From: a virus
Lineage: Duplodnaviria > Caudoviricetes
Length of the DNA: 64,000 nucleotides
Direction: 5' to 3' (one strand)
IMG/VR virus record: IMGVR_UViG_3300022917_000008
Span: 32,001 to 96,000 of that record
Below are positions 3,529 to 53,061 of the stretch, in pieces. Within the stretch, counting starts at the first letter, position 1, and every line of letters starts with the position of its first letter. Made by a program: the position numbers and the translations under genes. Below the pieces are notes generated by a model. That model had not been told where the DNA came from. It worked only from the letters and a program-made list of their open reading frames with translations, and ran no database searches.

Positions 3529-4314
3529 TCATCTCTTCTTTATTGTTAGCATTGTGTATGGTAATAGCCACTCACGTACCTTACGTAGTAGTATATCCAT
3601 ACATATGCCAGTTAACAAAATCAGTAATTGAATAGCCCACACATAGTCGAACTTGAAGTACTTGTTCTGATCACTAATAATCACACCAATACCTCCATCA
3701 CTCTTGCATAGGTTCTCCACCATTGCTATCATCATCCAAGCCATAGCAAAGTTTTGCCTTATAGCCTCAAGCACTTCCCCTAGTTTACCTAATATGATCA
3801 CTTCCCACACTACCCTCCATTCTGAGAACCTTAGTGTTCTGGCATAGTTTAGCTCGTCTTGTGTAGTCCCACTTATTATATTTAGTATAGAAGTCATGAA
3901 AAACACACTTATGCCAAACACCAATAAGTAGACCTTCTGGGAATCCACGTCTCCCCCTGCTATCTTTAGGAACAAGAATGTTAATCCAACGGTTGGTAAG
4001 AACCTTAGCTTTGTTCCTAGTAATGCTAGTGAGGTGAAGAGTGGTAGAACTGATGCATAGCAAAGTACGAGGCTTACAAGGGCTGCATAAAACATTGCTT
4101 GAGTACATAGTCCAATTGATTTAAGAAACTCTCTAAACACTCCTTTATGAAGTATCAGATCAACTAGGGCCCTAGCTATTTCTAAAGGTCTTGGGAACAG
4201 CGTATTGTTAGTGAAATCCCACAATAGCATCACCACTAATAGCTGGCAGGCCACTAGCAGGATTCCTTCCTTTCTGTTCAGTGATGCATTGGGTGTTATT
4301 AATTTTTTGTACAC
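3529..4314 (-). CDS. ABC transporter permease (NitT/TauT/SsuC-like)
   Basis: Several TM segments; EAA-like loop YARTLRFSEWRVVWEVI; W....VE......GGIG motif. Confidence 0.85.
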   Translation of the reverse strand: MYKKLITPNASLNRKEGILLVACQLLVVMLLWDFTNNTLFPRPLEIARALVDLILHKGVFREFLKSIGLCTQAMFYAALVSLVLCYASVLPLFTSLALLGTKLRFLPTVGLTFLFLKIAGGDVDSQKVYLLVFGISVFFMTSILNIISGTTQDELNYARTLRFSEWRVVWEVIILGKLGEVLEAIRQNFAMAWMMIAMVENLCKSDGGIGVIISDQNKYFKFDYVWAIQLLILLTGICMDILLRKVREWLLPYTMLTIKKR

Positions 4315-4774: not shown

Positions 4775-6595
4775 CTACTTTGCTCTCAACAGCTTGATTT
4801 CCACCCTTCTGTTCTTAGCCCTAGTTGTAGGACTATTCTGGTCAGCAGATGGATCAAGTGGTCTGTCACTACCAAACCCTGTAGAAGTGGTCCTGGGAGA
4901 GAATTCCTCATTCTTGCCTATGAGGTACACAGATACAGCTTTAGCTCTTGCATCAGACAAGTCCTTGTTCTTAGCAGGATCACCTGTATTATCAGTATGC
5001 CCACTAACCTCAATGAATAGATCAGATGCTACAGTCAGCTTGTCTGCAATCTTGTCTAGTATTGCATAGGAAGAAGGACTGATAACAGCTGAACCTGTCT
5101 GGAAGTTTATACTATAGGAAGCATCAGCAGCAGTGGTACCCTTAGTTGCTCTACTAAAGTCTACCTTAGATACACTACCAGCTGTTCCTTTGTTCTTGCT
5201 ATATGCAGCCTTGAGGAAGGACCAGTCTGTTACACTATTATAGTCAGGAAAAGAAGGTATTACTTCAGGGTATGCCTCAGTACATATCTTACCAAAGGTA
5301 TTATATACCGCCTTGTAATTATCCTTAGTACCATCAGCACCAGTATAATTGGCGGCATCAGCAAGATTAAATACCCTACTACCACCAATGTTGACAACAT
5401 TACCATCATCATCAGTGAAGTCATAGCTCAGGTATCCTTTGTACCAATCTTCCTCATGCATTACCTGATCCTGATATACAGCATCAGCTACCTTAGCTGC
5501 AAACCTTAGTGCATCATCATGGCTCTTTACCTGGTCACCACCTTTGCCTACCATAGTACAGAACTTCTCCATAATCTCCCTATTATCCTGTGCCCACTTC
5601 TTTATGAAGATGATGGCGTTAGGCATCTGGGCTGCAAAGTCCTTAGTGGAGGCAATTGAGACCAGACCACCCTTCTTTTGAACAGCATAAAGGTCTCCTG
5701 GGAACCATGTGACAACTCCTGTAATGCCCACTGTGGTATCTTTTCCAGTTCTATGGCCATTCTCCACAAGTGCCAGCTTGACTTGCTGTCCTGCCACATA
5801 TGCTTTTGCAGCCTCCATGTAGTCATCATTAGGAGCTGGTATGAAATTGACCTTAGTCCTGTCATATGTGGTGTTATCATTGTTGACATCCCATCCATTG
5901 AGTTGGCTTTTTATTACAGCAACATTCCAGTCACCATCCCTGATAACCCCTACATTGACTGATCCTCTTGCGTCTTTTTCATATTTCTTCTTGATGAGCC
6001 ACTTGTCTTCACCATAAGATGCACCTCCAAAAGTAACAACAGTAGGCACATACTCAGGACCAAAATCCTTTTTAAGTCTGGCCTCAAGCCCTGCAAAATA
6101 AGACGGGACACCATCTCCCATCCAAGCAATGAAATGAGTACCAGTAGCAGGATTACTCTCACCTTTACTAAGTGCTTGAGCAAATGCATATAAGTCCTCC
6201 CCTTGTTTGCTAGTGTTATTCTGAACACTAAGTTTAATATTTAATCCCAGCTCCTCTGCTATGCTACCTTTGGCAGTACTTGTACCACCTACAGCATACA
6301 TGAGGCCCATCTGGGCATTCCATCCCATTAGTTCTCCTCTTACCTCAGGGCCATTGATGGCTACTGCATTGCCAAAATCAGGTATAGGCCTTGTAGGAGC
6401 ATTGGCATTCTTGTCATATGCCAGTGGAGGTAGGGTGGAGGAGGCCTTAGTCACAATCTTGTCCTGTTTGGCAGCTGGGGGGAAAGCCTTTGTATACCCC
6501 CATTTACCTAGGAAGAACAGTCCTACCAGTACTATCAACAGTAGTACTTTGCCTCCTGGCTGTAGGTTATTGAAAAATCTTGATGCTTTGCTCAT
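4775..6595 (-). CDS. Membrane-anchored substrate-binding-like protein fused to an OmpA C-terminal domain
   Basis: N-terminal TM; C-terminal GHTDNTG..N..LS..RA..V and NRRVEI OmpA motifs; start moved to ATG 6595 (MSKASRFF), which follows an A-rich leader. Confidence 0.8.
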   Translation of the reverse strand: MSKASRFFNNLQPGGKVLLLIVLVGLFFLGKWGYTKAFPPAAKQDKIVTKASSTLPPLAYDKNANAPTRPIPDFGNAVAINGPEVRGELMGWNAQMGLMYAVGGTSTAKGSIAEELGLNIKLSVQNNTSKQGEDLYAFAQALSKGESNPATGTHFIAWMGDGVPSYFAGLEARLKKDFGPEYVPTVVTFGGASYGEDKWLIKKKYEKDARGSVNVGVIRDGDWNVAVIKSQLNGWDVNNDNTTYDRTKVNFIPAPNDDYMEAAKAYVAGQQVKLALVENGHRTGKDTTVGITGVVTWFPGDLYAVQKKGGLVSIASTKDFAAQMPNAIIFIKKWAQDNREIMEKFCTMVGKGGDQVKSHDDALRFAAKVADAVYQDQVMHEEDWYKGYLSYDFTDDDGNVVNIGGSRVFNLADAANYTGADGTKDNYKAVYNTFGKICTEAYPEVIPSFPDYNSVTDWSFLKAAYSKNKGTAGSVSKVDFSRATKGTTAADASYSINFQTGSAVISPSSYAILDKIADKLTVASDLFIEVSGHTDNTGDPAKNKDLSDARAKAVSVYLIGKNEEFSPRTTSTGFGSDRPLDPSADQNSPTTRAKNRRVEIKLLRAK

Positions 6596-9792: not shown

Positions 9793-11814
9793 TTATAAGA
9801 CTAACTCCTTTACAGGTTGGTACCTGTTTGAGGCATGCAGAGTCTTCAATGGCAAGAATGCATCAATGATGTCCAGATCATGGATGTTGGTGAACACCTG
9901 ATTCAAGACACCCATATTACATCCTCCAAAGTACATGATATTGGGAATATCCTGGAACTTCTTCCCATCTCCTACAGAGCCCTCCTTGACATCCCATATA
10001 ACAGTAACACCTTCCCATCCAAACCATTGCCTCATCTTGTTCTGGAACTCAAGGAAGCTTGATGTTGGACTATAAGAGCTATTGAACTCACCATCAGACA
10101 TGGCCAGTATGACCTTGTACCTGTTGATCATATCAATCCTCTGTGATGAGAATGCAGGCTCTTCATCTACCCATATCTTTAGTGCATCAGGTATTGCACT
10201 AAAGTTGGTACTACCATGTGGAGTACCAATGTACTTGGATATATTACTGAGATTCCATGAGAATGGCTTAGTCCTATCAACTAGTACATCAACAGTTGTG
10301 ACCTTAGTTGACATAAACTTGTTTCTCCCATTGGTCTCTGACTTAGTACCTGCAGCTACAACATCAGCTGAGGAACCAAACCTTACCAGGAATTCTCCTG
10401 CTTCAGCATCAGGGTTCTTCAGCAAGAATACTGTAGTGGCTAGCTGACAAAGTGCATTGGCACTGAATTCACTACCCTTGTGACTAACAGCTCTCATAGC
10501 CATAGACCCTGAGATGTCAGATGCTACAAGTACAGGTACCTGTAGTATAATCTTCTCAAGCAGGCTAAATGCCTTGACATCCATTTCTGCAGGAGTAAGT
10601 TTCCTGCTTGCAATCTCTGCAATGAGGTCAATGAGAACATCCCCAGCTACATTCACCTTAGCAGCCTTTTGGACTTGCTGAAGTTCCTTAGTGGTCATCT
10701 TCTCCTTTTCCTCAGTTGTGAGTGATGCAAGCTTGGTTTGGGCCTTCTGCTTGTCTGCCAGCCATTGGATGTACACAGCACCACAGTTCTCCCCAGACTT
10801 AAGTTTCCACTTATCCCTGGGTGAAAGTGTTCCTGCTTTGTCCTTGCTACATATCCTGCAGGCTACCCTATACCTTGCCTCAGAAGGCAATGTGTCTAAC
10901 CAATCCATAAACTGAGTCTTGTCCATGAATGTTACACTCCTGGGATCATCCAGATGTGCACTAAACTTAACAGCCTCAGTTTCAGACAGGTAGGTTTTCC
11001 TAAACTGCCTGTAACCCTCGAAATGCAAACCACCCTTCATCTTGGTGATCTTCCAGTCCATCTTGGCAGACAATGCCTTGATGAAATCAATCACCCAAGC
11101 ATCCTTCTGCTTTGTGTGCTCTTTCTTCTCTTTCTTCACTGTGATGGAATCACCCACCTTGGCATCAGCATACTTCTCATTCTTCTTGAATGCCTTGATG
11201 TTCTTGTCAGTAATAACATACTTGCGTATCCTACTACTGTTTGGTACATGGGGTAACCACCTGGCCCACAGCATCTTTTCATTCTCTGTGGTAGTAGTTG
11301 CCTTTAGTACCTTAGTGATGTAATCAGTGACAGGGTTAATGCCTACATCCAGCTTCAGAACTTCCTGTAGTGTACCTTTGTACCTATCAGTCTTCAGCTG
11401 GTAAAACATGATACCCCCCAAATTGTAATACTCTCCTATGATTGGTAGGAAAGTATAGAACTGCACTGGAGCCCTTTCAAGCATCCATTTTAAGCAGTAC
11501 ATAAACACACGTCTCTTACTCTGACCACCAGTGTCAGGTGTCTTGATACCTCTCCTACGGAAGACATTGTGTTCCCTATTGCTCATATCCCCTAGTGAGA
11601 ATACAAGAACATAGAACAACTCTTTCTTCTCCTTAGTGTTGCATTCACTCCATGCAGCGTCAAGGTACCTGTAAACCTGTTGCTGAGTGACTGTAGTATC
11701 TGATAACTTGTTGCCCTGTTGAAACAAGTCCAGTGTACTACTCATCTTGTAGAAAGGATTACTCTCCACAAGCTTTGATGTCTTAGCAGCCATAATTGAT
11801 CCACTCATTGACAT
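9793..11814 (-). CDS. TROVE/Ro60-like (DUF2828-type) helical protein with a C-terminal vWA domain
   Basis: MIDAS motif DISGSM, GSTNF, SDGEFN and VIWDV; basic helical N-terminal part with ARWLP; lies directly downstream of the tRNA-like RNA array. Confidence 0.7.
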   Translation of the reverse strand: MSMSGSIMAAKTSKLVESNPFYKMSSTLDLFQQGNKLSDTTVTQQQVYRYLDAAWSECNTKEKKELFYVLVFSLGDMSNREHNVFRRRGIKTPDTGGQSKRRVFMYCLKWMLERAPVQFYTFLPIIGEYYNLGGIMFYQLKTDRYKGTLQEVLKLDVGINPVTDYITKVLKATTTTENEKMLWARWLPHVPNSSRIRKYVITDKNIKAFKKNEKYADAKVGDSITVKKEKKEHTKQKDAWVIDFIKALSAKMDWKITKMKGGLHFEGYRQFRKTYLSETEAVKFSAHLDDPRSVTFMDKTQFMDWLDTLPSEARYRVACRICSKDKAGTLSPRDKWKLKSGENCGAVYIQWLADKQKAQTKLASLTTEEKEKMTTKELQQVQKAAKVNVAGDVLIDLIAEIASRKLTPAEMDVKAFSLLEKIILQVPVLVASDISGSMAMRAVSHKGSEFSANALCQLATTVFLLKNPDAEAGEFLVRFGSSADVVAAGTKSETNGRNKFMSTKVTTVDVLVDRTKPFSWNLSNISKYIGTPHGSTNFSAIPDALKIWVDEEPAFSSQRIDMINRYKVILAMSDGEFNSSYSPTSSFLEFQNKMRQWFGWEGVTVIWDVKEGSVGDGKKFQDIPNIMYFGGCNMGVLNQVFTNIHDLDIIDAFLPLKTLHASNRYQPVKELVL

Positions 11815-11855
11815 TTGGTTTTTAGCATTTCTCGAAATGGGTTAAAGACATAGAT

Positions 11856-11922
11856 ACTCACTAATGTTGATCAATTACAAGTTGATTGCTTTTGCAAAGC
11901 ATTGATTTGATTCTAAGTGAGT
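11856..11922 (-). ncRNA. Y-RNA-like element 1 (short, no tRNA domain)
   Basis: ACTCACTTAGAATC...ATTAGTGAGT closing helix around two small hairpins. Confidence 0.7.
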
Positions 11923-12000
11923 GAAGAAGTTAGTGTTAAGCTTGTCTCTCGCTACATGGCCTTTGCAGGGTTATTATGTAGACGTTTGCACTTAACACTT

Positions 12001-12121
12001 GTGTAGGGGATGGGATTCGAACCACATACATACGTCCTCCAAAAGGAATTGTATAAGTTATTCTAAGTAGTGTAATATACACTACTAATACTACGTGCTC
12101 TACCAATTGAGCTACCCCTAC
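12001..12121 (-). ncRNA. Y-RNA-like element 2: tRNA scaffold with the motif hairpin inserted between D and anticodon arms
   Basis: Acceptor GTAGGGG/CCCCTAC; D arm GCTCAATTGGTAGAGC; insert TTAGTAGTG-TATATTA-CACTACTTAGAATA; hairpin TCC-TTTTGGA-GGA; T loop TTCGAAT. Confidence 0.75.
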
Positions 12122-12395
12122 AAAATAGGAGTTCCTCCATAGAAAATGGAGGAACTCATAATGTCCTTAAAAACAACCTGTTGCAGAACCAAGCCTTGGC
12201 CATTTCAGCCAATACTTGTTTTTTGAGCAATATTGCTCGCTCTTGGAGGGAGATACAATCCCCTTCCAAGACTGGTAGTGAGCTGTGTCTAGTCTAACAC
12301 CTAGTCACCTGCCTACTAACATAGTTTGACAGTTACAATAGAAAAAGCCCCACATAGATATGTAGGGCCTTTATCAAAATTAACTGTAGGAACAG

Positions 12396-12514
12396 TTGGG
12401 GGACTTGGAATCGAACCAAGGACTATTCCTTATGATGGAATAATTGTTGTTGATGGATTATAAGTAGGTGTACCTACTAAGTAACTAATTGTGATACCAC
12501 TTCACCATCCCCCA
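12396..12514 (-). ncRNA. Y-RNA-like element 3: same topology as element 2, CAT anticodon hairpin, variant motif CTTATAAT
   Basis: Acceptor TGGGGGA/TCCCCCA; insert TTAGTAGG-TACA-CCTACTTATAAT; ATTCC-ATCATAA-GGAAT; T arm CTTGG-TTCGATT-CCAAG. Confidence 0.7.
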
Positions 12515-12521
12515 ATATAGA

Positions 12522-12582
12522 GACTCACTAATTGTTAATCTGGTGTTCCACTTAAGGAACTAGGTTGGATTCTAAGTGAGTC
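12522..12582 (-). ncRNA. Y-RNA-like element 4 (short)
   Basis: GACTCACTTAGAATC...ATTAGTGAGTC. Confidence 0.7.
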
Positions 12583-12591
12583 AAGAAATTA

Positions 12592-12711
12592 AGTCCTCTA
12601 ACTTATTTTTGGATTGATTAAGAATCAATTGCCTAACCATTTGGCTACTGTGGATTGCTCCATAGACAGGATTCGAACCTGTATTATTTGTTAAAGTATT
12701 CTAAGAGGACT
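12592..12711 (-). ncRNA. Y-RNA-like element 5: circularly permuted tRNA-Lys(CTT)
   Basis: Order: AGTCCTCTTAGAATA, T arm ACAGG-TTCGAAT-CCTGT, loop-closed acceptor, D arm, ATTGA-TTCTTAA-TCAAT, TTAGAGGACT. Confidence 0.8.
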
Positions 12712-12716
12712 ATTTG

Positions 12717-12791
12717 TGGAGAAAGTAAGACTCGAACTTACCTCCCTTGCTTATTTAAGGCAAGCCTGTAACCACTCCAGGGCATTTCTCC
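12717..12791 (-). tRNA. Atypical tRNA with a 9-nt anticodon loop
   Basis: Acceptor GGAGAAA/TTTCTCC; CTTGC-CTTAAATAA-GCAAG; T arm GTAAG-TTCGAGT-CTTAC. Confidence 0.6.
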
Positions 12792-12795
12792 AGGG

Positions 12796-12924
12796 ATTTC
12801 ACTAAGTTTAGTTGCCTATTTTCAAGTAGGTGCCTGACCACACAGGCTTACCCCCCATTAAATCTCCTCACATATGTGGGGGGTTAGGATTCGAACCCAT
12901 TTTTTGAGGTATTCTAAGTGAAAT
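12796..12924 (-). ncRNA. Y-RNA-like element 6: circularly permuted tRNA
   Basis: ATTTCACTTAGAATA, T loop TTCGAAT, acceptor CCCCCCA/TGGGGGG closed by a loop, D arm, CCTA-CTTGAAAA-TAGG, TTAGTGAAAT. Confidence 0.8.
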
Positions 12925-13075
12925 AAAGAACTTGAGTGAGCTTGGCCAAGCTGTATTATTCCCCTACACTTTTACAGTAGCACTGAAGCTTTTACAAAAA
13001 AGGCCATATCTTCTTTAGGCCCTAGGGCTCTAGTCTAACTATTAAGTACAGACCTTGTTAACACTCACTCTTTTG

Positions 13076-13158
13076 TGTTGGTGGGAGGGGTTACACCTCC
13101 ATGCCTTGCGGCGCTTTGACATTTAATCGCAGTGTGTCTATATTTCCACCACACCAAC
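13076..13158 (-). tRNA. Degenerate Leu-like tRNA with a disrupted anticodon arm
   Basis: Acceptor GTTGGTG/CACCAAC; variable arm GCC-GCAA-GGC; T stem GGAGG/CCTCC with a non-canonical loop. Confidence 0.5.
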
Positions 13159-13190
13159 AAGTACTGTGCAAACATACAACAATAAACTGA

Positions 13191-13394
13191 AACCCACTAA
13201 TTTTTCTTCTTTTTTGACATAAAAGTGCTCACCACTGAACTTCTCCCCCTAGTTGAAATATAGTAGGCCTATGGAAATAAGCCTACTTGAAACATCCTTA
13301 GAAGCGCGAGCCACGAAGTGCCCCAGAGATGGGGACTTTGTAGAGCAGGGGGAGCCAGAGTCGAACTGGTATTTGTATGTATTCTAAGTGGGCT
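13191..13394 (-). ncRNA. Y-RNA-like element 7: permuted tRNA (GTC loop) with a ~90-nt structured insert closing the acceptor stem
   Basis: AGCCCACTTAGAATA, CCAG-TTCGACT-CTGG, CTCCCCCT...AGGGGGAG, D arm, CTTTT-ATGTCAA-AAAAG, TTAGTGGGTT. Confidence 0.75.
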
Positions 13395-13474
13395 AAAGAG
13401 TTTAAAAGAAGGGTGTAGAAACACCCTTCGAGGTGTTAAGTAACCCCAAAAGGGGCTTTACTTATGAAAAAAGG

Positions 13475-13575
13475 TGTGGAGAGGAGGATTTGAACCTCCA
13501 TGAATGTCTTGCAACATTCCCAGCTATAGTCCAGGGTCCAGCCTATAGCCTGCTCTACTATTGGCATACCTCCAC
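13475..13575 (-). ncRNA. tRNA-like RNA with an enlarged anticodon arm and a long variable arm
   Basis: Acceptor GTGGAGG/TCTCCAC; GCTATAG-13nt-CTATAGC; GAATGT-TGCAAG-ACATTC; GGAGG-TTCAAAT-CCTCC. Confidence 0.6.
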
Positions 13576-13756
13576 ATATGTATATCAGTCACTTATATCC
13601 TCATATATAGTAGCTGATAAAGCTATTATTGATAGTACTATTAATAATGCTATTGAAACCCATGCAGGTAGGTACAATATGGCACATGCTATTATACCAG
13701 CTATCAAAGCCATTACAACCAATATGGCTAGGGCTATGCCTACACTTTCTGCTGCC

Positions 13757-14266
13757 TTACGTGTATCCATCTGCTTCCTCCTTGTATTTGTCTCTGTACA
13801 CATTCCTTAGTATGGATAGGATTCTTGCATTAGGCTTTGTGCTTGGATTGAGAGACCTTGCAGTAAAGTAGTCAATGTCTGCCCAATCATTGATAAATTG
13901 AGCAACTGCACCACTTCTTTTGACCCCAGCAGCACAATGCACTACACATACATCTGCATGGCTATTCTGCTCTATAAAGGCCAAAATAGCCTTTCCCTGC
14001 TCCTCACTCATGGGAACTACAGAAATGTACTCTCTTTTGTCACGACCCAATAAAGGCACCTGTAATGGCTCATCAACATCATCAAATAGTAGTCTTAGAA
14101 CATTTGGATGGTCTTTTTGGAACCAGTGGGGCATTCTTAGCAGGTCTTGCTCTCCTATTATCTCAATGAAGCAAGCCTTGTTCTTTAGGCTAACATTTTC
14201 ATCATTAAGATGTTCCCTAGCTACCATTGCTCCAAACTGATTCCATGATAATGCAAGTGCTATCAT
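13757..14266 (-). CDS. Cys-based (PTP/dual-specificity) phosphatase-like protein
   Basis: VHCAAGVKRS CX5R P-loop; FDDVD acid loop. Confidence 0.85.
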   Translation of the reverse strand: MIALALSWNQFGAMVAREHLNDENVSLKNKACFIEIIGEQDLLRMPHWFQKDHPNVLRLLFDDVDEPLQVPLLGRDKREYISVVPMSEEQGKAILAFIEQNSHADVCVVHCAAGVKRSGAVAQFINDWADIDYFTARSLNPSTKPNARILSILRNVYRDKYKEEADGYT

Positions 14267-14432
14267 CTTTCAGTGTCTTTATAAACATCATAAGATACAG
14301 TGAGGGCAATGGAACTAGCTAGTACCCACCACATATATTCACTGTCATGCTGAATTACCAGTAATATTGTGTTAAGTATAACAGACAGCCCGTTTAGTAT
14401 TACAGCAGCTAAGGCAGCCCAATGTAATGCTC

Positions 14433-14663
14433 TCATTTCTTACCTCCTAATAGCATTATCAAGCCTGTAGCAACACCCAGTCCTATCCATATAGATAGAG
14501 ACAAGACAGTACTAAAGGCAATAACCCATAAGAATATAACCATAACAGCATGAACACTAGGTTCACTTATTCCAGCTGTTATCCAGTGGATGATATGGTT
14601 AGCTGTACTAAAGCACATCCACATTGAAAAGATTGCTATTGCAATCGCAATAATGTATCTCAT
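14433..14663 (-). CDS. Small membrane protein
   Basis: 76 aa, almost entirely hydrophobic; overlaps the stop of the upstream gene. Confidence 0.6.
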   Translation of the reverse strand: MRYIIAIAIAIFSMWMCFSTANHIIHWITAGISEPSVHAVMVIFLWVIAFSTVLSLSIWIGLGVATGLIMLLGGKK

Positions 14664-15085
14664 TTCTCCAGTAACTTGTAATAGCCTTTGCAGTGATCAC
14701 ACTGACTAAGGCACTTTGACTTCCCCTCTACATTCCTCTGACAATAGACATATCTATTGAATTTGGCAATACCCAAGGAGAGTTTAATAGTCTTCGTATA
14801 GGCAACTAGGCTATGCACATACAGATCAGGTCTGAATATGTGCATAAAATCCCCTAAGGAGTAGGTTCTTCCTTTGCAGAAAAATCTAGCCTTTCCCCTT
14901 AGTTTAACATTCATTCTCCACATCCATCCATCTATTGGATCAGTATGTGGGCTAAGAACAGTCTTAGCTGGATACTTGAGTATATACCCATCAAATCCAA
15001 CCCTTCCTATTCTGAGGTAAAGGAAGCACCACTTATAGTAGATAACTCCCTGTTGTCTGCCTGGTATCCACCTAAATAGTTTCAT
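14660..15085 (-). CDS. 2OG-Fe(II) oxygenase-like protein
   Basis: ILKYP....LSPHTD (HxD) and a distal FRPD..VHS His. Confidence 0.65.
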   Translation of the reverse strand: MKLFRWIPGRQQGVIYYKWCFLYLRIGRVGFDGYILKYPAKTVLSPHTDPIDGWMWRMNVKLRGKARFFCKGRTYSLGDFMHIFRPDLYVHSLVAYTKTIKLSLGIAKFNRYVYCQRNVEGKSKCLSQCDHCKGYYKLLEK

Positions 15086-15342
15086 ATCCTGTGTTAAAAA
15101 GAGAGCCCCATAGTAGAAACTAAGGGCTGCTAACGATTGCTTGCCATATTAAAAAGAGTTAATCCTGTCTACCTCCAATAGTAGAATAGTCCAGCAAAAC
15201 TTAATGCTCAGCCCTTGTGAAAGGGTTTTCTCAAACTATCTCCCTTATCAAGCTTGCCTTGGATAGCCTACATTCCTTTTGGGTGTCCTGTAGTGCTTGC
15301 CTAAGAGCAGGACTAAAGAATTTTAGGAGCAATCAAAATGTC

Positions 15343-15621
15343 TTACTGTTGTGCGTTAGCATGAGCATGTTCCTCCTGCTGAGTAGCCTCCTCCTGGGTG
15401 TTCTCCTCAGCATGTATTTCATTCACAGACTCATAGAACATGTTTGTCCTGTTCCTACAGGCCTGTTTGGCATCCTCACTCAGGTCCTCAAAGGGCACCA
15501 TAAGGTTCTCACCATTTACATCCACACTCTTGTGGCCCTGTCCCTCTTTGTCAGAGACCCACTTCTTGTGTTGGCGTGCTGATACTTTCTCAATGTCAGG
15601 TAATTGCAAGTTGTTCTTCAT
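15343..15621 (-). CDS. RyR-domain-like small protein
   Basis: H..W...K...G and LMVPFEDLSEDAKQ..R pattern. Confidence 0.55.
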   Translation of the reverse strand: MKNNLQLPDIEKVSARQHKKWVSDKEGQGHKSVDVNGENLMVPFEDLSEDAKQACRNRTNMFYESVNEIHAEENTQEEATQQEEHAHANAQQ

Positions 15622-15670
15622 ACTTGTTCTGTTTTTATGAAAGTGAATAAATAAGCTTTGTTAAAATAGG

Positions 15671-15789
15671 AACTCACTAAACTTTTTAAGATGGGAGTCG
15701 AACCCATTACCCATTGATTAGAAGTCAATTGCTCTACCAAATGAGCTACTTCTCCAGATTAAGGAGATTTGATGTATTCTAAGTGAGTT
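15671..15789 (-). ncRNA. Y-RNA-like element 8: unpermuted D, anticodon (TCT) and T arms closed by the motif helix
   Basis: AACTCACTTAGAATA...GCTCATTTGGTAGAGC, ATTGA-CTTCTAA-TCAAT, ATGGG-TTCGACT-CCCAT...TTAGTGAGTT. Confidence 0.8.
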
Positions 15790-15866
15790 AAGAAAGTATG
15801 TAGGGGCGTGCTTCCAGCTACACCACAACTTGAAGGGCCTTGACCCTTGCCTCCCCTACAATAATA

Positions 15867-16442
15867 TTACATCTTCCTAAAGGAAGTCTTCTTGTCAAAC
15901 CCATGACTAACTACCTTCTCAATGTCAGTCCTTGTATCCTTGATAATAGGTTCCCTAGTTAAGAACTCTACTATCCTAAGGTACGCATCTTCAGGAGGCA
16001 CTAACCTACCAAACTGAAAGTCTGCTAGCTTTACATTCTTAGTACCTTCCCCATCAAATGTATACCTAGGTAGTAGCACCACAGGACAGTTTAGCTTCTC
16101 ATTCACATCTGTTGGTTTGTTATGTCCAGTAAGGTACTCACGCTCAGTAGGGAGTTTGTATGCATTCTCCTTATCCACAAACTTTCTTAGCACTAGGACT
16201 TCATCCCCTATGTATACCTTCCCATTGTAACAACACACCTTGTACGTTGTTCCACAAAAAGCTATTCCATAATAGTAATACCCAGGTAGGTCAAGATACT
16301 CAGGCCTGTATATGCCACTTTTCACCCATGAGTGCTGTGGTGTTTCAGTTTCACATACTCTCTCATATACTACCTTAGGGTCAATACCATATTTACCAAT
16401 AAGGAAGTCATAGTAGTCCTTGAAGTTAGATACGATCTTCAT
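15867..16442 (-). CDS. Hypothetical phage protein
   Basis: MKIVSNFKDYYD...HGFDKKTSFR; ATGA overlap with the HD gene. Confidence 0.75.
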   Translation of the reverse strand: MKIVSNFKDYYDFLIGKYGIDPKVVYERVCETETPQHSWVKSGIYRPEYLDLPGYYYYGIAFCGTTYKVCCYNGKVYIGDEVLVLRKFVDKENAYKLPTEREYLTGHNKPTDVNEKLNCPVVLLPRYTFDGEGTKNVKLADFQFGRLVPPEDAYLRIVEFLTREPIIKDTRTDIEKVVSHGFDKKTSFRKM

Positions 16443-16990
16443 GACACAGTTTTTGCTTGTCCAAACAGTAGTTGGTCTAGATGATCCTGCATTTCCCTGT
16501 ATTCATTCCCTAGTTGCATCTCACTGAGGAACTGATTGTGCTCCCTCATGTGCATACTAAGCTTGCTGTTCTTGAACATGACACCATGCCTTACATTGGC
16601 TATCTTGTCACAAAGCTTGACAAACTTAGCACCAGGAGTTTCCCTTATGTTCTGCCAGTATATAGGTGGATGTCTTTCATTCCTATTCCTACCAGGATAC
16701 TCAGTAACAGCTAGAATGACTTCAGCTACCCATATAGCATCTTCATTAGTGTGTCCTTCAAGCAGGCTAATGTGTTGAATCACATCACTGTAGTTGGTTC
16801 TTGCATCTTCATACAGGTCATGGCCTGCAATGGCATACCTGTACCTCCAAAACTCTGCTTTGGGCACCAGATGTTGGAACTCCTTAGCTACTTGTAAGGC
16901 AAGCCTCAGATGATACTCATAAGGCAGATAGTCCTCATACATGTGATTTGTTATCTCATGCCTGTGAATGGCCCATGTCACAAAGTCCAT
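16439..16990 (-). CDS. HD-domain hydrolase, SpoT/Mesh1-like (small alarmone hydrolase-like)
   Basis: PYEYHL, GHDLYED and VKLCDKIAN motifs; start moved to ATG 16990 because the track start lies inside RNA element 9. Confidence 0.8.
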   Translation of the reverse strand: MDFVTWAIHRHEITNHMYEDYLPYEYHLRLALQVAKEFQHLVPKAEFWRYRYAIAGHDLYEDARTNYSDVIQHISLLEGHTNEDAIWVAEVILAVTEYPGRNRNERHPPIYWQNIRETPGAKFVKLCDKIANVRHGVMFKNSKLSMHMREHNQFLSEMQLGNEYREMQDHLDQLLFGQAKTVS

Positions 16991-17016
16991 AAATGGTTGT
17001 TTTAAGGTTAAAAATA

Positions 17017-17129
17017 AGCTCACTAATTCTTTTTTTGGCACACCTAGGGGGATTGGATACCCCCACTTCCAGGGCTAGCCTGGCGTCTTATTTAGACTAT
17101 AGATATAAGTAAAGTATTCTAAGTGAGCT
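17017..17129 (-). ncRNA. Y-RNA-like element 9: degenerate cloverleaf ending in CCA, nested inside the motif helix
   Basis: AGCTCACTTAGAATA...TATATCTA/TAGGTGTG-CCA with three internal hairpins...TTAGTGAGCT. Confidence 0.7.
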
Positions 17130-17152
17130 GTTGATATGCATGATACTATGTA

Positions 17153-17260
17153 GGGGGGAAGGTGGGATTTGAACCCACTATTACAAAAACCAAATTTTGC
17201 TTTTTACCAATGTTTGAAGGTATTCTAAGAGGTCAACCTCTAACAAGATTAACTTCCCCC
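17153..17260 (-). ncRNA. Y-RNA-like element 10: motif hairpin in place of the D arm
   Basis: Acceptor GGGGGAAG/CTTCCCCC; TTAGAGG-TTGA-CCTCTTAGAATA; T arm GTGGG-TTCAAAT-CCCAC. Confidence 0.75.
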
Positions 17261-17475
17261 ATTTAGACCCTTCTGGTGGGTCAGCCCGTCCATTCAATGC
17301 CTTTCTGGTATATGTCTCACCACCCTGCTTCCAGTTGCACATACTGTATTGAGTGTAGTCTATTGTGGCGACCCAATACTATGTGAGGCAAAGAGATTCC
17401 ACCTCCTCCTGGACTAGGACTGGAGGTCATTTTGCAGAGTACCACCGTCCAAAAGTACACGTACAGTGTGAACCT

Positions 17476-18057
17476 TTATCTTTGTCTTTGAGTCTGCCTC
17501 AAAGGTACTTTTAGTGCCTCATCATACATCTTAGACAAGTCATTAATGTGTATATGAGCACTAATGCCCCAGTTACCATTAACCCTTAATGTAAGATACT
17601 CACTCTTCAGCCAATCAGGGAACTCCATATTACCCCTTGTCTTATTACACTTCTTGCATGCACTAATAAGGTTCTCTTCAACTGAAGCACCCATCTTCTC
17701 CCAAAGGACAATATGGTCTACAGTCAAGGGTACTTGGTTATTACCACAATACTGACAAGTGTAGTTGTCTCTCCTGAATACATTCCAGGATATAGTTTGT
17801 TCAATGTTTCTTTGAGACTTTCTAAGTACTACCTTGTTGAGTCCCATAACCCCCAATGTATCAAGCTGATACAAGAGGGTCTTCCACTCTTCATGAGTGG
17901 GTTGTATGATGGATAGAGGTACTAGACCAGTCTCTGGAAAAAGCATTAGTTCTGCTTCCTGTCCATTAGCCAGTAACATACCACTTATCTCTAGCTTATC
18001 ACCATACTTCAATAACTCCTCTGGCCTAAATGGCCCAGTCAAATTCTTCATAGACAC
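17476..18057 (-). CDS. HNH endonuclease
   Basis: RDNYTCQYCG...LTVDHI...NLISACKKCNKTRG. Confidence 0.85.
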   Translation of the reverse strand: MSMKNLTGPFRPEELLKYGDKLEISGMLLANGQEAELMLFPETGLVPLSIIQPTHEEWKTLLYQLDTLGVMGLNKVVLRKSQRNIEQTISWNVFRRDNYTCQYCGNNQVPLTVDHIVLWEKMGASVEENLISACKKCNKTRGNMEFPDWLKSEYLTLRVNGNWGISAHIHINDLSKMYDEALKVPLRQTQRQR

Positions 18058-18073
18058 AGTTTGTTTAGAGTAG

Positions 18074-18179
18074 CTGGGGAACCCATATTGCTATGGGCAC
18101 TTGGATTTGGACTCCAAGGTTCAGTGTAATGTTATTCTAAGTAAGGAAGGGTCTTACTAACACTTAATGAATTCCCCAG
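18074..18179 (-). ncRNA. Y-RNA-like element 11: motif hairpin in the D-arm position, CCA anticodon-like loop
   Basis: CTGGGGAA/TTCCCCAG; TTAGTAAG-ACCCTTC-CTTACTTAGAATA; CTTGGA-GTCCAAA-TCCAAG; CCCAT-AGCAAT-ATGGG. Confidence 0.7.
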
Positions 18180-18203: not shown

Positions 18204-18258
18204 AGTCACTAATATCTTAAAACCATATCTAAGTTGTTGTGTTTATTCTAAGTGTACT
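18204..18258 (-). ncRNA. Y-RNA-like element 12 (short)
   Basis: AGTACACTTAGAATA...ATTAGTGACT. Confidence 0.6.
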
Positions 18259-19044: not shown

Positions 19045-20724
19045 TCAACTTTTGTTAAACAAGTACAGAGTACCTGCAGTCAGACATAATATGCCTGAGT
19101 TGCAGATTCTGAGTACTGACTGCTCAGTCACAAACCTACATGCTATAGTTGCTATCTTTGCAAGGTCAGACTTTCTGTATACATCCATAGCACCATTTGT
19201 TGGTATGTATAGATGGTCTCCTCTTTCAGCAATGATACACATCCCATTTAGCTTCGGGCCCAACTCTACTCTCATACCCTTGACAGCAAATAAGAAGTGC
19301 TCTACTTGGCTGCCCAATTTACTCTCAATGACACCATATTTACCACTAGGGCATAAATACACATCAGTTGCATTAGTAGCTGTTCTCAGTGTTGTCATAT
19401 GACCCAACGAGATGTCAATGATAAACTTACTACCAACTACAGTCTGGACTATGCCAGTTTGCACCACAACTGATTTAGTGTAGATAGAACCCATTGTAGA
19501 GGATATGTGTCCATTGAGGATTTGGTCTACTGCAATAATAATGAAGGAATCACTTCCACTATCAAAGTATATGCTCTTCCCATTACTTGTGTGACCAAAT
19601 GAACCTGATGGGATGAGAAAGTTCTTCACTTCCTCCTCTCCTTGTTGGGTGCAATTGTAGAGTTTACTGTACCTTGTTATTACAACATTGGTATTACCGA
19701 GGATACATCCTTCAGCCTTAGTTGATACATGGTGCTTAGCATATGCACCTGGGCCTGTACTTCTGTAGATTGTGAATGTATCAGTATCTTTCCTTGTGTA
19801 GAAGAAGCTGTCTGTTGCATCAAAGTCTTCCACATCAAGATTGATTGTTCTTACTGTAAGCTCACCTTCCTTAATAGCCTGTATGAATGAGGATACTTTG
19901 CCTACTGGTACATGAGCATTAGTATATACTCCTCCACTCACATTAGGCACAAACCTCTCAGCATCCTGGAATATCTTAATGAACTGGTCAGTGACTCTTC
20001 TGTCACTAAATGGTTCATAGAATGCAGGGATTACCAAATCAGGATCATTTGATAATACTGAGATTTTCCTGATCACTCTGTCCTCAAACTTCTGTACCTT
20101 CCTGTGTATACCCTTGTAAGGGTGTAGATGAGTGAACATCTGGAAGACCATAACTGAAAGTGCATAGTAATCAGACTTGTCATCAATGTGGTTGTACAAC
20201 CAATCCCTTATCTCAGGCAACATCACACCTGAGTGTGGTCTGCTCTTAGTCTGGAATGAGTCCACATCAATGAAATAGACCTCAGCCTTGTTGGACACAA
20301 ATATGTTATAGGGGTTGAAGTCCCCTATCACAATGCCCAACTTATGTGCCTGGATCATGCTGGCTATCATACCAGCATATATATCTTGCTTGACCTTCTC
20401 TGTGAACCCTGCCTTAGTTGCAGTGGGCTTAGAGAAGATAGTTGCAAGTAGGTGCAGTTTATGAGTATCTAAGTACTTCATAGACAGACCTTTAAGAAAA
20501 CCTTGTTTGTCGTAAAACAACTCCAATGGCTTAATGAAGTTGTCAGGGAGTACCATAAGCTCCTGCAGTGTCTGTAGGGATAGATTGCCTCTCTGGTGAT
20601 ACACTTTGATGACTTGATGGGAATCTTTTGGATGCTCATACAATGTACCTTCACCCCCTCTATTGATCTCCTTGTTTGTATCAACAGACAAAGCTATCTT
20701 CCCATAACCATCATATAGTGTCAT
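19045..20724 (-). CDS. Ser/Thr protein kinase-like protein (TerY-P triad kinase)
   Basis: RGGEG Gly loop, VIKVY, IVIGDFNPYNI, FIDVDSFQ, SDYYAL, HPYKG. Confidence 0.85.
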   Translation of the reverse strand: MTLYDGYGKIALSVDTNKEINRGGEGTLYEHPKDSHQVIKVYHQRGNLSLQTLQELMVLPDNFIKPLELFYDKQGFLKGLSMKYLDTHKLHLLATIFSKPTATKAGFTEKVKQDIYAGMIASMIQAHKLGIVIGDFNPYNIFVSNKAEVYFIDVDSFQTKSRPHSGVMLPEIRDWLYNHIDDKSDYYALSVMVFQMFTHLHPYKGIHRKVQKFEDRVIRKISVLSNDPDLVIPAFYEPFSDRRVTDQFIKIFQDAERFVPNVSGGVYTNAHVPVGKVSSFIQAIKEGELTVRTINLDVEDFDATDSFFYTRKDTDTFTIYRSTGPGAYAKHHVSTKAEGCILGNTNVVITRYSKLYNCTQQGEEEVKNFLIPSGSFGHTSNGKSIYFDSGSDSFIIIAVDQILNGHISSTMGSIYTKSVVVQTGIVQTVVGSKFIIDISLGHMTTLRTATNATDVYLCPSGKYGVIESKLGSQVEHFLFAVKGMRVELGPKLNGMCIIAERGDHLYIPTNGAMDVYRKSDLAKIATIACRFVTEQSVLRICNSGILCLTAGTLYLFNKS

Positions 20725-23828: not shown

Positions 23829-23910
23829 TGTATGTTGTTTTTTGTTTGGCTTAATAAAGGAGGTCTTACATAGACATGCAAGGCCTGTAATTTATACCCT
23901 TAAACTAAAA

Positions 23911-24315
23911 GTGGAGGTGAGGGGAGTTGAACCCCTGTCCAACTTCAGTATCAATGTGTAGGAGTTTATATGCTTATCTGTGTTTGTCTTCTACAGTAGA
24001 ATAGTCAATTCACTTATCGCGTAGCACTGGGCAGAATTGACAATCACCACACTACTTTAGGTAGTGACTCTTTTGCTTTAGCTTATTAGGCAGCTATAGC
24101 TACACCTGTGTAAAGGCTTCTTACAGCCCCTTTGCTTCTGCTGTCACCAGCTTTGGCTACACTTGCTTTCAGCATAAATGCTGATTTACCTACTTTATTA
24201 GCAGATATTGTTCCGTCTCATTTGTTAGGTACATTACTGTACTTTAGGCCCTCATGACGCTTGGGCCTGCATAACTACCTATCAATACACAAAGCTGTCT
24301 AAACCTGGCACCCCC
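23911..24315 (-). ncRNA. ssrA: tmRNA
   Basis: 5' GGGGGTGCCAGGTTTAGAC and 3' GACAGGGGTTCAACTCCCCTCACCTCCAC give a G3-U70 Ala acceptor; internal frame ends ...VAIAA-TAA-TAA. Confidence 0.9.
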
Positions 24316-47176: not shown

Positions 47177-47246
47177 GGGCTAGATGCCAATGGCAGGTCA
47201 ACTCCCTTGCAAGGAGATTGTTTGGGTTCGACTCCCACTATGTCCA
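47177..47246 (+). tRNA. tRNA-Ala (TGC), irregular acceptor stem
   Basis: CTCC-CTTGCAA-GGAG; G3-U70 present; TGGG-TTCGACT-CCCA. Confidence 0.75.
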
Positions 47247-51116: not shown

Positions 51117-51189
51117 GCCTTCCTAGCTCAATTGATAGAGCGTCCATCTCTAAAATGGAAAGATGTGGGTTTGAGTCCCACGGATCGCA
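51117..51189 (+). tRNA. Amber suppressor-type tRNA (anticodon CTA)
   Basis: TCCAT-CTCTAAA-ATGGA; normal D arm and T stem; acceptor GCCTTCC/GGATCGC has two mismatches. Confidence 0.8.
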
Positions 51190-51204
51190 CTTAAACTAAA
51201 CACA

Positions 51205-52988: not shown

Positions 52989-53061
52989 GGTGCACAAGCT
53001 AATCTGGTGAAAGCACTAGACTGAAAATCTAGGGAGCTTGGATCAAAACCAAGGTGTACCG
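52989..53061 (+). tRNA. tRNA-Phe (GAA)
   Basis: CTAGA-CTGAAAA-TCTAG; GGTGCAC/GTGTACC. Confidence 0.9.

Follow-up and report, generated by a model that had tools for sequence, protein, structure and literature searches.

What are the twelve short structured elements that lie upstream of a gene for a 673-amino-acid (aa) protein in a tailed phage, and why does each of them carry the same small RNA motif? The elements lie in bases 32001-96000 of the 155,657-bp IMG/VR phage record IMGVR_UViG_3300022917_000008, which is judged complete; this 64,000-nucleotide (nt) stretch is called the window, and positions are window positions unless a related locus is named. Every element contains a motif that we call the handle, and in most of them the handle is joined to a body that resembles a tRNA. 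The explanation that we favor, with moderate confidence, is that the 12 elements are genes of Y-RNA-like small RNAs whose tRNA-mimic cargo is carried on a handle bound by the product of the 673-aa gene, for which a Ro60 fold is predicted. Most probably the system is a Ro60/Y-RNA particle of a form not described before; a literature search found no published account of it.

The handle motif and its partner strand

The core of the handle, CTTA(G/T)AAT, occurs in 12 copies on the minus strand of the window between 11856 and 18258, in a region that belongs to a minus-strand block by GC skew. All copies lie within 6.5 kb upstream of the 673-aa gene, and no further copy of the core with a partner helix was found in the rest of the 155,657-bp genome. 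Read on the minus strand, the handle consists of a helix strand ending in ACU followed by UA(G/U)AAUA(C/A), paired with a partner in which UU precedes AGU and the returning helix strand; an asymmetric internal loop, UANAAUA opposite UU, thus stands beside the helix. Two forms of the handle occur. In the open form, seen in seven elements, the partner lies 33-176 nt downstream and the helix closes the ends of the RNA. In the closed form, seen in four elements, the partner lies just upstream and the helix is a capped hairpin inside the body. The 12th copy, at 18205-18258, has a helix of only 4 bp. The arms vary from copy to copy with complementarity retained, the pairs including CUCACU/AGUGAG, CCCACU/AGUGGG, UUUCACU/AGUGAAA, GUCCUCU/AGAGGAC, CUUACU/AGUAAG and CACUACU/AGUAGUG.

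The statistics of the motif were taken from a comparison set of 710 kb, composed of this genome and 28 loci of related phages (designated L001-L028), with a partner-helix score of at least 7 as the cut-off in the core scan. On the sense strand 75 of 231 cores have a partner helix, against 2 of 105 on the antisense strand and about 5 of about 110 in block shuffles. Among these 75 handles each of helix positions 3-7 is occupied by three to six Watson-Crick or wobble pair types. Only the third base of the loop varies (G 30, C 23, U 21, A 1), the 3' side of the loop is UU in 59 handles, and a U-rich tract follows the 3' arm. Minimum-free-energy (MFE) folding of 11 motif elements showed the handle helix in 10, with z scores from -1.8 to -4.4; the folded set also took in a tRNA-like sequence without a handle at 12717-12791.

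Two other identities for the repeated sequence were considered and set aside. A miniature inverted-repeat transposable element, or another terminal inverted repeat, was rejected because the arms differ among copies and yet remain complementary. A promoter of the T7/T3 type, for which CTCACTTAGAATAC is similar to CTCACTATAGGGAGA, was dropped because the partner strand covaries; a search of the genome for the single-subunit polymerase family (Pfam RNA_pol) gave no match, and the control genomes gave no match either. A pattern scan of IMG/VR for CACTTAGAATAC..TTAGTG returned five matches, in all of which the helix fails to extend, the context is coding-like and a Ro-like gene is absent. These are all chance matches, and the scan is therefore uninformative on whether handles exist without the protein. 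The RNA region had no blastn match among GenBank phages.

Attachment of the handle to tRNA-like bodies

The original prediction, made from the window alone, was that one RNA module is attached to the tRNA cloverleaf at four different positions. This proved to be so: the handle is found at the variable region (class a), at the junction of the D and anticodon arms (class b), at the D-arm position (class c) and at the acceptor end (class d). The elements, with the hairpin that ends their densest array, are as follows.

12592-12713 (-): class a, permuted tRNA-Lys(CUU) mimic; acceptor capped by a GCAA tetraloop; handle AGTCCTCT/AGAGGACT opens the variable region
12796-12926 (-): class a, permuted tRNA-like RNA; handle helix around a T arm, a 7-bp acceptor whose strands a 19-nt linker joins, and a D arm
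13191-13394 (-): class a, permuted mimic of tRNA-Asp(GUC); acceptor closed by about 95 nt of linker; handle helix CCCACT/AGTGGG
12002-12121 (-): class b, colinear tRNA-Gln(UUG)-like; closed handle hairpin at about 12057-12090 in the 5' strand of the anticodon stem
12396-12514 (-): class b, colinear tRNA(CAU)-like; closed handle hairpin, TATAAT variant, between D arm and anticodon stem
17153-17260 (-): class c; 8-bp acceptor stem, canonical T arm, closed hairpin at about 17220-17243 at the D-arm position
18074-18179 (-): cloverleaf-shaped four-way junction; closed hairpin at about 18132-18160 as arm 1, 7-nt GUCCAAA loop on arm 2, GCAA-capped arm 3; MFE z -4.4
15671-15791 (-): class d, tRNA-Arg(UCU)-like; 3' acceptor strand interrupted, with the handle leaving at the gap; acceptor end closed by a 7-nt loop
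17017-17131 (-): class d, degenerate cloverleaf; inner stem and three hairpins within handle helix GCTCACT/AGTGAGC; MFE z -4.0
11856-11924 (-): minimal handle RNA, 42 nt upstream of the protein gene; helix ACTCACT/AGTGAGT, small hairpin, anticodon-like stem-loop CUUGUAA (UGU)
12522-12584 (-): minimal handle RNA; 8-bp handle helix around one hairpin with a 6-nt loop; helix present in the MFE fold, z -2.8
18205-18258 (-): weakest copy; handle loop, 4-bp helix, one small hairpin; MFE fold without the helix, z +0.36
12343-12372 (-): intrinsic-terminator-like hairpin, ends the array 13394-12396

On unmodified sequence ARAGORN called none of the 12 handle elements as a tRNA. A class a RNA opens with the 5' arm of the handle, which is followed by the T arm with GUUCGAAUC and then by the 3' and 5' strands of the acceptor, in that order and with the linker between them; the D arm with GG, the anticodon arm and the 3' arm of the handle complete it. 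Only once re-permuted were 12592-12713 and 13191-13394 recognized, as tRNA-Lys(ctt) and tRNA-Asp(gtc). The third member, 12796-12926, shares the arm order but has a non-canonical anticodon-like loop of 8 or 6 nt, and drew no ARAGORN call at the default threshold. Alignment A2, which holds eight class a RNAs from six phages and includes 12592-12713 and 12796-12926, gave an RNAalifold structure of 26 pairs in five helices, 22 of the pairs being changed on both sides. Under this structure 94.7% of cells pair, compared with 64% in shuffled alignments (0 of 500 as high) and 32-47% when the partners were slid. The acceptor caps are GCAA in the window, GUAA in L002 and GCAA in L027. The permuted order read from the single sequence, with the handle opening the variable region, is supported by re-permutation and by covariation.

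Class b RNAs have free acceptor ends, and the hairpin is held by an insert that follows position 26 or 29, at the 5' side of the anticodon stem. Rfam matched 12002-12121 as tRNA at 42.7 bits with a 57-nt insert and 12396-12514 at 43.6 bits with a 59-nt insert; after deletion of the hairpin ARAGORN called them Gln(ttg) and Met(cat). RNAalifold on alignment A3 (nine class b RNAs from eight phages) gave a consensus of acceptor stem, D arm, handle hairpin, anticodon hairpin and T arm, with 24 pairs, 17 of them compensatory. The closed hairpin between D and anticodon arms, also anticipated from the window, agrees with all three analyses. Compensatory changes across related phages accordingly back classes a and b at the level of sequence comparison, and classes c and d recur in related phages.

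Replacement of the D arm had been claimed for two elements, of which one stands. In 17153-17260 the handle hairpin directly follows the acceptor 5' strand, and the orthologue in L002 near 4723 consists of acceptor stem, T arm and handle hairpin only. The hairpin of L013, L016, L019 and L008 lies within the D loop, and a D stem GCUA/UAGC is retained. RNAalifold on class c, with a poor alignment, recovered the acceptor and T arms alone. To see a tRNA with a replaced D arm in 18074-18179 was an over-reading, because its orthologues in L002 (near 2907) and L027 (near 3110) have the outer stem and the handle hairpin without arms 2 and 3; its likeness to a tRNA is weak and lies in the cloverleaf shape only. 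At the acceptor end the handle had been said to replace or enclose the stem. Enclosure holds for 17017-17131, which had no Rfam match, and replacement does not, because this element has an inner stem of its own. The other class d RNA, 15671-15791, has the best Rfam tRNA score of the region (53.8 bits), over model positions 5-66 with the acceptor ends missing; its 3' acceptor strand is split, with CUU after the T arm and CUCC upstream. The same arrangement is found in L027 near 5014-5131 and at L003:1577-1696, with a compensatory change.

Three elements (11856-11924, 12522-12584 and 18205-18258) are minimal, with hairpins only and no tRNA body. The CUUGUAA loop of 11856-11924 is kept in the orthologues L002:9893-9960 and L028:289-358, and its first hairpin covaries. 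The relatives also possess a fifth attachment position beyond the four of the window: at L027:2929-3041 and L001:1225-1333 the handle sits at the anticodon loop, which is the canonical layout of YrlA RNAs.

Because the handle can either close an RNA or stand as a capped hairpin, it is graftable at different points of a tRNA body. The 7-nt anticodon-like loops predicted for the window (CUU, GUC, UCU, CAU, UUG and CCA) are all present, and UGU is found in addition. The Arg and Thr loops are those of the phage's own tRNAs, and the 17-nt anticodon stem-loop of 12592-12713 is identical, at 17 of 17 nt, to that of the phage tRNA-Lys at 44333, as had been noticed originally; the remaining loops differ at one or two positions. 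All displayed anticodons are also provided by canonical phage tRNAs.

Elements of the array 13394-12396 are separated by gaps of 4-9 nt. With such tight packing and a single terminator, processing is needed on any reading, and the array would probably be one transcript that is cut into single RNAs. Three tRNA-like genes without a handle were also seen here. One of them, 12717-12791 (-), lies inside the array and has an Rfam score of 42.4 bits, a 9-nt anticodon loop CUUAAAUAA and no ARAGORN call. The other two, at 13475-13575 (-) and 13076-13158 (-), are aberrant, with 27.7 and 29.2 bits; in the former the anticodon stem is 8 bp long and there is a long extra arm, and a terminator at 13453-13424 comes after this gene. 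A further small RNA may lie at 12160-12340 (-), where about 200 nt between two strong terminator-like hairpins (12372-12343 and 12157-12129) contain no open reading frame (ORF).

The downstream protein gene and its neighborhood

The gene that follows the handle RNAs is described by the following line.

9793-11814 (-): 673-aa protein with a predicted Ro60 fold, a helical ring plus a vWA domain; its start is 42 nt past the last handle RNA

The 673-aa protein has no Pfam family match, and a tblastn search with it found nothing in GenBank phages. It has 38 homologues, none of them named. The earlier label of a DUF2828-type protein was not borne out by Pfam; DUF2828 enters solely as the nearest named cluster in the ESM Atlas. 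The DxSxS motif of an adhesion site dependent on metal ions (MIDAS; D433, S435, S437) is invariant in 24 homologue sequences. The AlphaFold2 model has a mean predicted local distance difference test score (pLDDT) of 80 and a predicted template modeling score (pTM) of 0.73. Its top 12 Foldseek matches in the PDB are all Ro60/TROVE structures, with E values from 2e-7; Ro60 of Xenopus, human, Deinococcus and the Thermus phage phiLo align over about 670 columns at E 2e-7 to 5e-4, and 1yvp, 9nfa, 2nvo and 9kop are among the full-length matches. The VIA aligner placed 400-420 residues of both domains on Ro60 with Z scores of 13.9-11.5 (the best, Z 13.9, over 419 residues spanning 19-655), while matches to the vWA domain alone reached Z 12.8 over about 180 residues. 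Its nearest neighbors in the ESM Atlas are viral DUF7788/DUF2828 clusters (template modeling score, TM, 0.65/0.80), then TROVE+vWA_Ro60 clusters (TM 0.46-0.57). From these models the protein is predicted to have a Ro60-like fold outside the TROVE sequence family.

The gene and the handle are linked across the phage family. About 25 of the 29 related loci have at least one clear handle RNA on the strand of the gene, often less than about 100 nt from it. In the close relatives L001, L002, L003, L026, L027 and L028 (49-66% protein identity) handle RNAs are found on the gene's strand, and distant relatives (26-35% identity) have handle RNAs with UAUAAU or UACAAU loops, the UACAAUA variant occurring in L005, L008 and L024. 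Other neighboring genes change among loci while the gene with the predicted Ro60 fold and the handle persist. In the relatives the handle encloses tRNAs that ARAGORN recognized, 18 of them permuted and 17 intact. The proposal that the RNAs share one protein platform is indirectly supported by this synteny across a wide phage family and by the predicted fold.

The RNA cluster is flanked in the window by a 559-aa ORF resembling protein kinase/RIO proteins at 19045-20724 (-) and by an ORF with a weak likeness to dual-specificity phosphatases at 13757-14266 (-). An HNH endonuclease gene lies directly downstream of a handle RNA at 17476-18057 (-) and in four relatives (L001 8747-9649; L002 2953-3534; L003 8234-9112; L027 3155-3748). 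Further neighbors in the relatives are PP2C, an RF-1 domain mini-protein, HD_4 and a TerD/TerC/vWA-TerF set. At L001 3195-3780 (+) permuted tRNA-like modules without a handle adjoin a DUF7873 gene, one example being T arm and acceptor 3' strand, hairpin linker, acceptor 5' strand and D arm; near 3565 of the same locus stands TTAACCTCACTAAAGGAAC, which is near the T3 promoter consensus. The distant relative L020 (+) carries TTATCTTTGCAT about 20 times in 21.7 kb, with few clear handle copies.

The window encodes one transfer-messenger RNA (tmRNA) and at least 24 canonical tRNA genes, nearly all of the latter on the plus strand beyond 44 kb. The tmRNA, at 23909-24315 (-), scores 75.6 bits with Rfam and has a predicted tag peptide ETEQYLLIK. 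The tRNAs at 52989-53061 (+) and 47178-47246 (+) were matched by Rfam and missed by ARAGORN; their anticodons, read by eye as GAA (Phe) and UGC (Ala), would round out a tRNA set for 20 amino acids. The tRNA at 51117-51190 (+) has a CUA anticodon (an amber suppressor, labelled Pyl by ARAGORN). The long late ORFs are open under table 11, and wholesale recoding is thus not indicated.

Explanations of the handle RNAs and comparison with known systems

We propose that each RNA carries a common protein-binding handle, a helix of free sequence ending in ACU/AGU with the UANAAUA/UU loop, and that this would be bound by the putative Ro60-fold protein encoded immediately downstream. The rest of the RNA would be cargo: in most cases a mimic that stems from a tRNA gene, in some no more than an anticodon-like hairpin. 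Grafting of the handle would have taken place at the variable region, between the D and anticodon arms, at the D-arm position and at the acceptor end, and in relatives also at the anticodon loop. The particle would tether the cargo or present it to host proteins that recognize tRNA, as in other Ro60/Y-RNA systems; candidate targets are nucleases, modification or repair enzymes, and PNPase.

Several observations weigh against this proposal. TROVE (PF05731) had no match in the genome, the 673-aa protein or 24 homologues at E values up to 10, and a profile search of PDB sequences gave no match to the protein. Its TM to Ro60 is 0.36-0.57, and a Z score of about 14 can be attained by helical repeats through shape alone. 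The handle is unlike the published Ro-binding motifs GNCGAA/GGUCCGA except for GAA, which is lost in the UACAAU/UAUAAU variants, and with YrlA no score exceeds 19.9 bits, where the cut-off is 69. That UANAAU is also the sigma-70 -10 consensus is an uncomfortable coincidence. Finally, some handles of relatives enclose seemingly intact tRNAs that could be released by RNase P and RNase Z.

Three other explanations were considered. If the conserved CTTANAAT were a promoter -10 element (TAnAAT) serving the small-RNA genes and the downstream ORFs, it would not be an RNA motif at all; it varies only at the least conserved position of the sigma-70 hexamer, many elements lie directly upstream of ORFs, and the site 11939-11910 scores promoter-like. 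Against this, information content at -45 to -20 is below 0.15 bits, no -35 element is conserved, positions -3 and -2 hold A and C rather than the TG of an extended -10, and promoter-like sites in the region number 13 where 15.4 are expected from shuffles. Over distances of 30-190 nt, the bases immediately upstream of the hexamer covary with the partner strand, closed forms are embedded in conserved tRNA-like bodies with acceptor strands that pair around them, and the motif is limited to the neighborhood of one gene in a 155-kb genome. We regard this as highly improbable. Scarcely better is the chance that the handle is a splice or processing site, at which the interrupted (b) and permuted (a, d) genes are cut and religated into ordinary chargeable tRNAs, the permuted ones via a circular intermediate as in Cyanidioschyzon. 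Removal of the hairpin does restore canonical anticodon stems, which ARAGORN calls Gln and Met, an acceptor stem of 7 bp returns when CTT and CTCC of 15671-15791 are joined, and re-permutation yields tRNA calls. However, class a acceptor stems are capped by GNRA loops in three phages (GCAA, GUAA and GCAA), which therefore leave no discriminator or trailer, and the distance from handle to junction varies among elements. A genome search found no RtcB or Rnl2-type ligase domain, every displayed anticodon is redundant with a canonical phage tRNA, three elements have no tRNA body, and the YrlA-type relatives have no anticodon loop. This fate for the RNAs is very unlikely.

A third possibility accepts the handle RNAs as real and makes them independent of the 673-aa protein, the handle being a site for some other factor or a punctuation at which the transcript is cut, and the bodies being RNase P/Z signals or released tRNAs. 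The array is tightly packed and bounded by one terminator, some handles of relatives enclose intact tRNAs with their leader and trailer, a U-rich tract follows the 3' arm, and there are further conserved neighbors in HNH, AAA ATPase and DUF7873 genes. Of all neighbors, though, the gene with the predicted Ro60 fold alone accompanies the handle family-wide, at identities of 26-66% and in differing neighborhoods, and Ro60 is the sole fold known for such a layout of terminal stem, 5'-strand motif and variable effector domain. We consider this explanation unlikely, if by no means negligible, and return to binding by the 673-aa protein as the preferred one.

A decoy role against anticodon nucleases, the function originally suggested for the RNAs, is plausible as a hypothesis. 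It can be extended to a multi-headed decoy particle, in which one Ro60-like ring and a universal handle take up grafts that expose different tRNA faces, each RNA trapping or misdirecting a different host enzyme that attacks tRNA, and in which DUF2828/DUF7788 proteins generally are Ro60 analogues with handle-tagged RNAs. This larger scheme is speculative, and we would give it perhaps the odds of an outsider. If it were true, the faces shown would be the Lys, Arg, Gln, Asp, Met, Thr and Trp anticodon loops, the elbow and an acceptor/T minihelix, the targets would be such as an anticodon nuclease or a defense-system toxin, and the scheme would reach uncharacterized DUF2828/DUF7788 proteins of viruses and eukaryotes. 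A literature search found no paper on DUF2828 function.

Known Y RNAs number one to four per genome and have a single fixed layout. By the comparative evidence the present handle is portable, as a closing helix or a capped hairpin that has been moved round the tRNA scaffold in evolution. The RNAs may thus offer a ready-made natural set of constructs with which to explore the purpose of the tRNA-like domain in bacterial Y RNAs, a question standing since 2014. They would also supply a candidate RNA partner and function for the unannotated protein clade nearest DUF2828/DUF7788, and place that clade in a tRNA-centered arms race between phage and host.

The handle RNAs differ from functional tRNA genes (RF00005) in that their Rfam matches need inserts of 57-59 nt or miss the acceptor ends, and class a needs re-permutation. 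They resemble the permuted and intron-containing tRNA genes of Cyanidioschyzon merolae and archaea in placing the 3' half before the 5' half and in bearing inserts at non-canonical positions. Unlike in those genes, no bulge-helix-bulge was seen in the handle RNAs, acceptor ends are tetraloop-capped, a ligase or endonuclease gene for such processing was not found, and the anticodons are redundant with canonical tRNAs. The layout is also that of the Class I RNAs of Dictyostelium (Kjellin et al. 2021, PMC7919456), where a short stem conserved in structure and not in sequence joins the ends, an invariant single-stranded motif lies by the 5' strand and the remainder is variable; Class I RNA (RF01414) had no match at E values up to 10 in window 11800-13450 or L008:5000-9000.

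Other parallels are with Ro60 itself, which binds Y RNA on the outside of its ring. In bacteria and phages Y RNAs encoded beside Ro60 have a terminal stem with a conserved motif in its 5' strand and a tRNA-like domain (PMC4201824, 10.1101/312249, PMC12135203). The Ro60 of Thermus phage phiLo binds two RNAs encoded upstream, with a bulged CGAA, and together with these RNAs forms complexes with host PNPase (PMC12135203). Like the present system, it is phage-encoded, its RNAs Yrl1 and Yrl2 lie directly upstream, and a stem of 5' and 3' ends flanks an internal loop with a conserved motif (PMC12135203); its structures 9KOP and 9L5Y are among the top structural matches of the 673-aa model. It differs in having two RNAs, a CGAA bulge and no described tRNA-like cargo, where here there are tRNA mimics and another motif.

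YrlA RNAs adjoin Ro60 in more than 250 bacteria and phages, with GNCGAA near the 5' end and tRNA mimicry that includes a loop-closed acceptor stem (Chen et al. 2014, PMC4201824; Wang et al. 2018, 10.1101/312249). Their tRNA-like domain opens at the anticodon stem, so the original statement that the Ro-binding stem takes the place of the anticodon arm was correct (10.1101/312249; PMC4201824). With Rfam RF02553, whose gathering cut-off is 69 bits, nothing reached the threshold, and the best match (E 0.4) fell on 12604-12706. Both systems have RNA genes beside a gene for a Ro60 fold, predicted in this case, and RNAs with a terminal stem and a conserved motif in its 5' strand. Class a has the T arm, loop-closed acceptor stem and D arm of YrlA, that is, a circularly permuted tRNA, and L027:2929-3041 and L001:1225-1333 have the YrlA arrangement itself. 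The present protein lacks the TROVE sequence signature of Ro60 (Rsr), the handle motif is CU|UANAAUA with UU opposite instead of GNCGAA, there are 12 RNAs rather than one to four, and the handle also occurs as a capped hairpin. No element of the window has a stem that continues from the anticodon stem without an anticodon loop. The window elements retain anticodon-like loops instead: with the handle at one of the four attachment positions seen there, full anticodon stem-loops are therefore kept.

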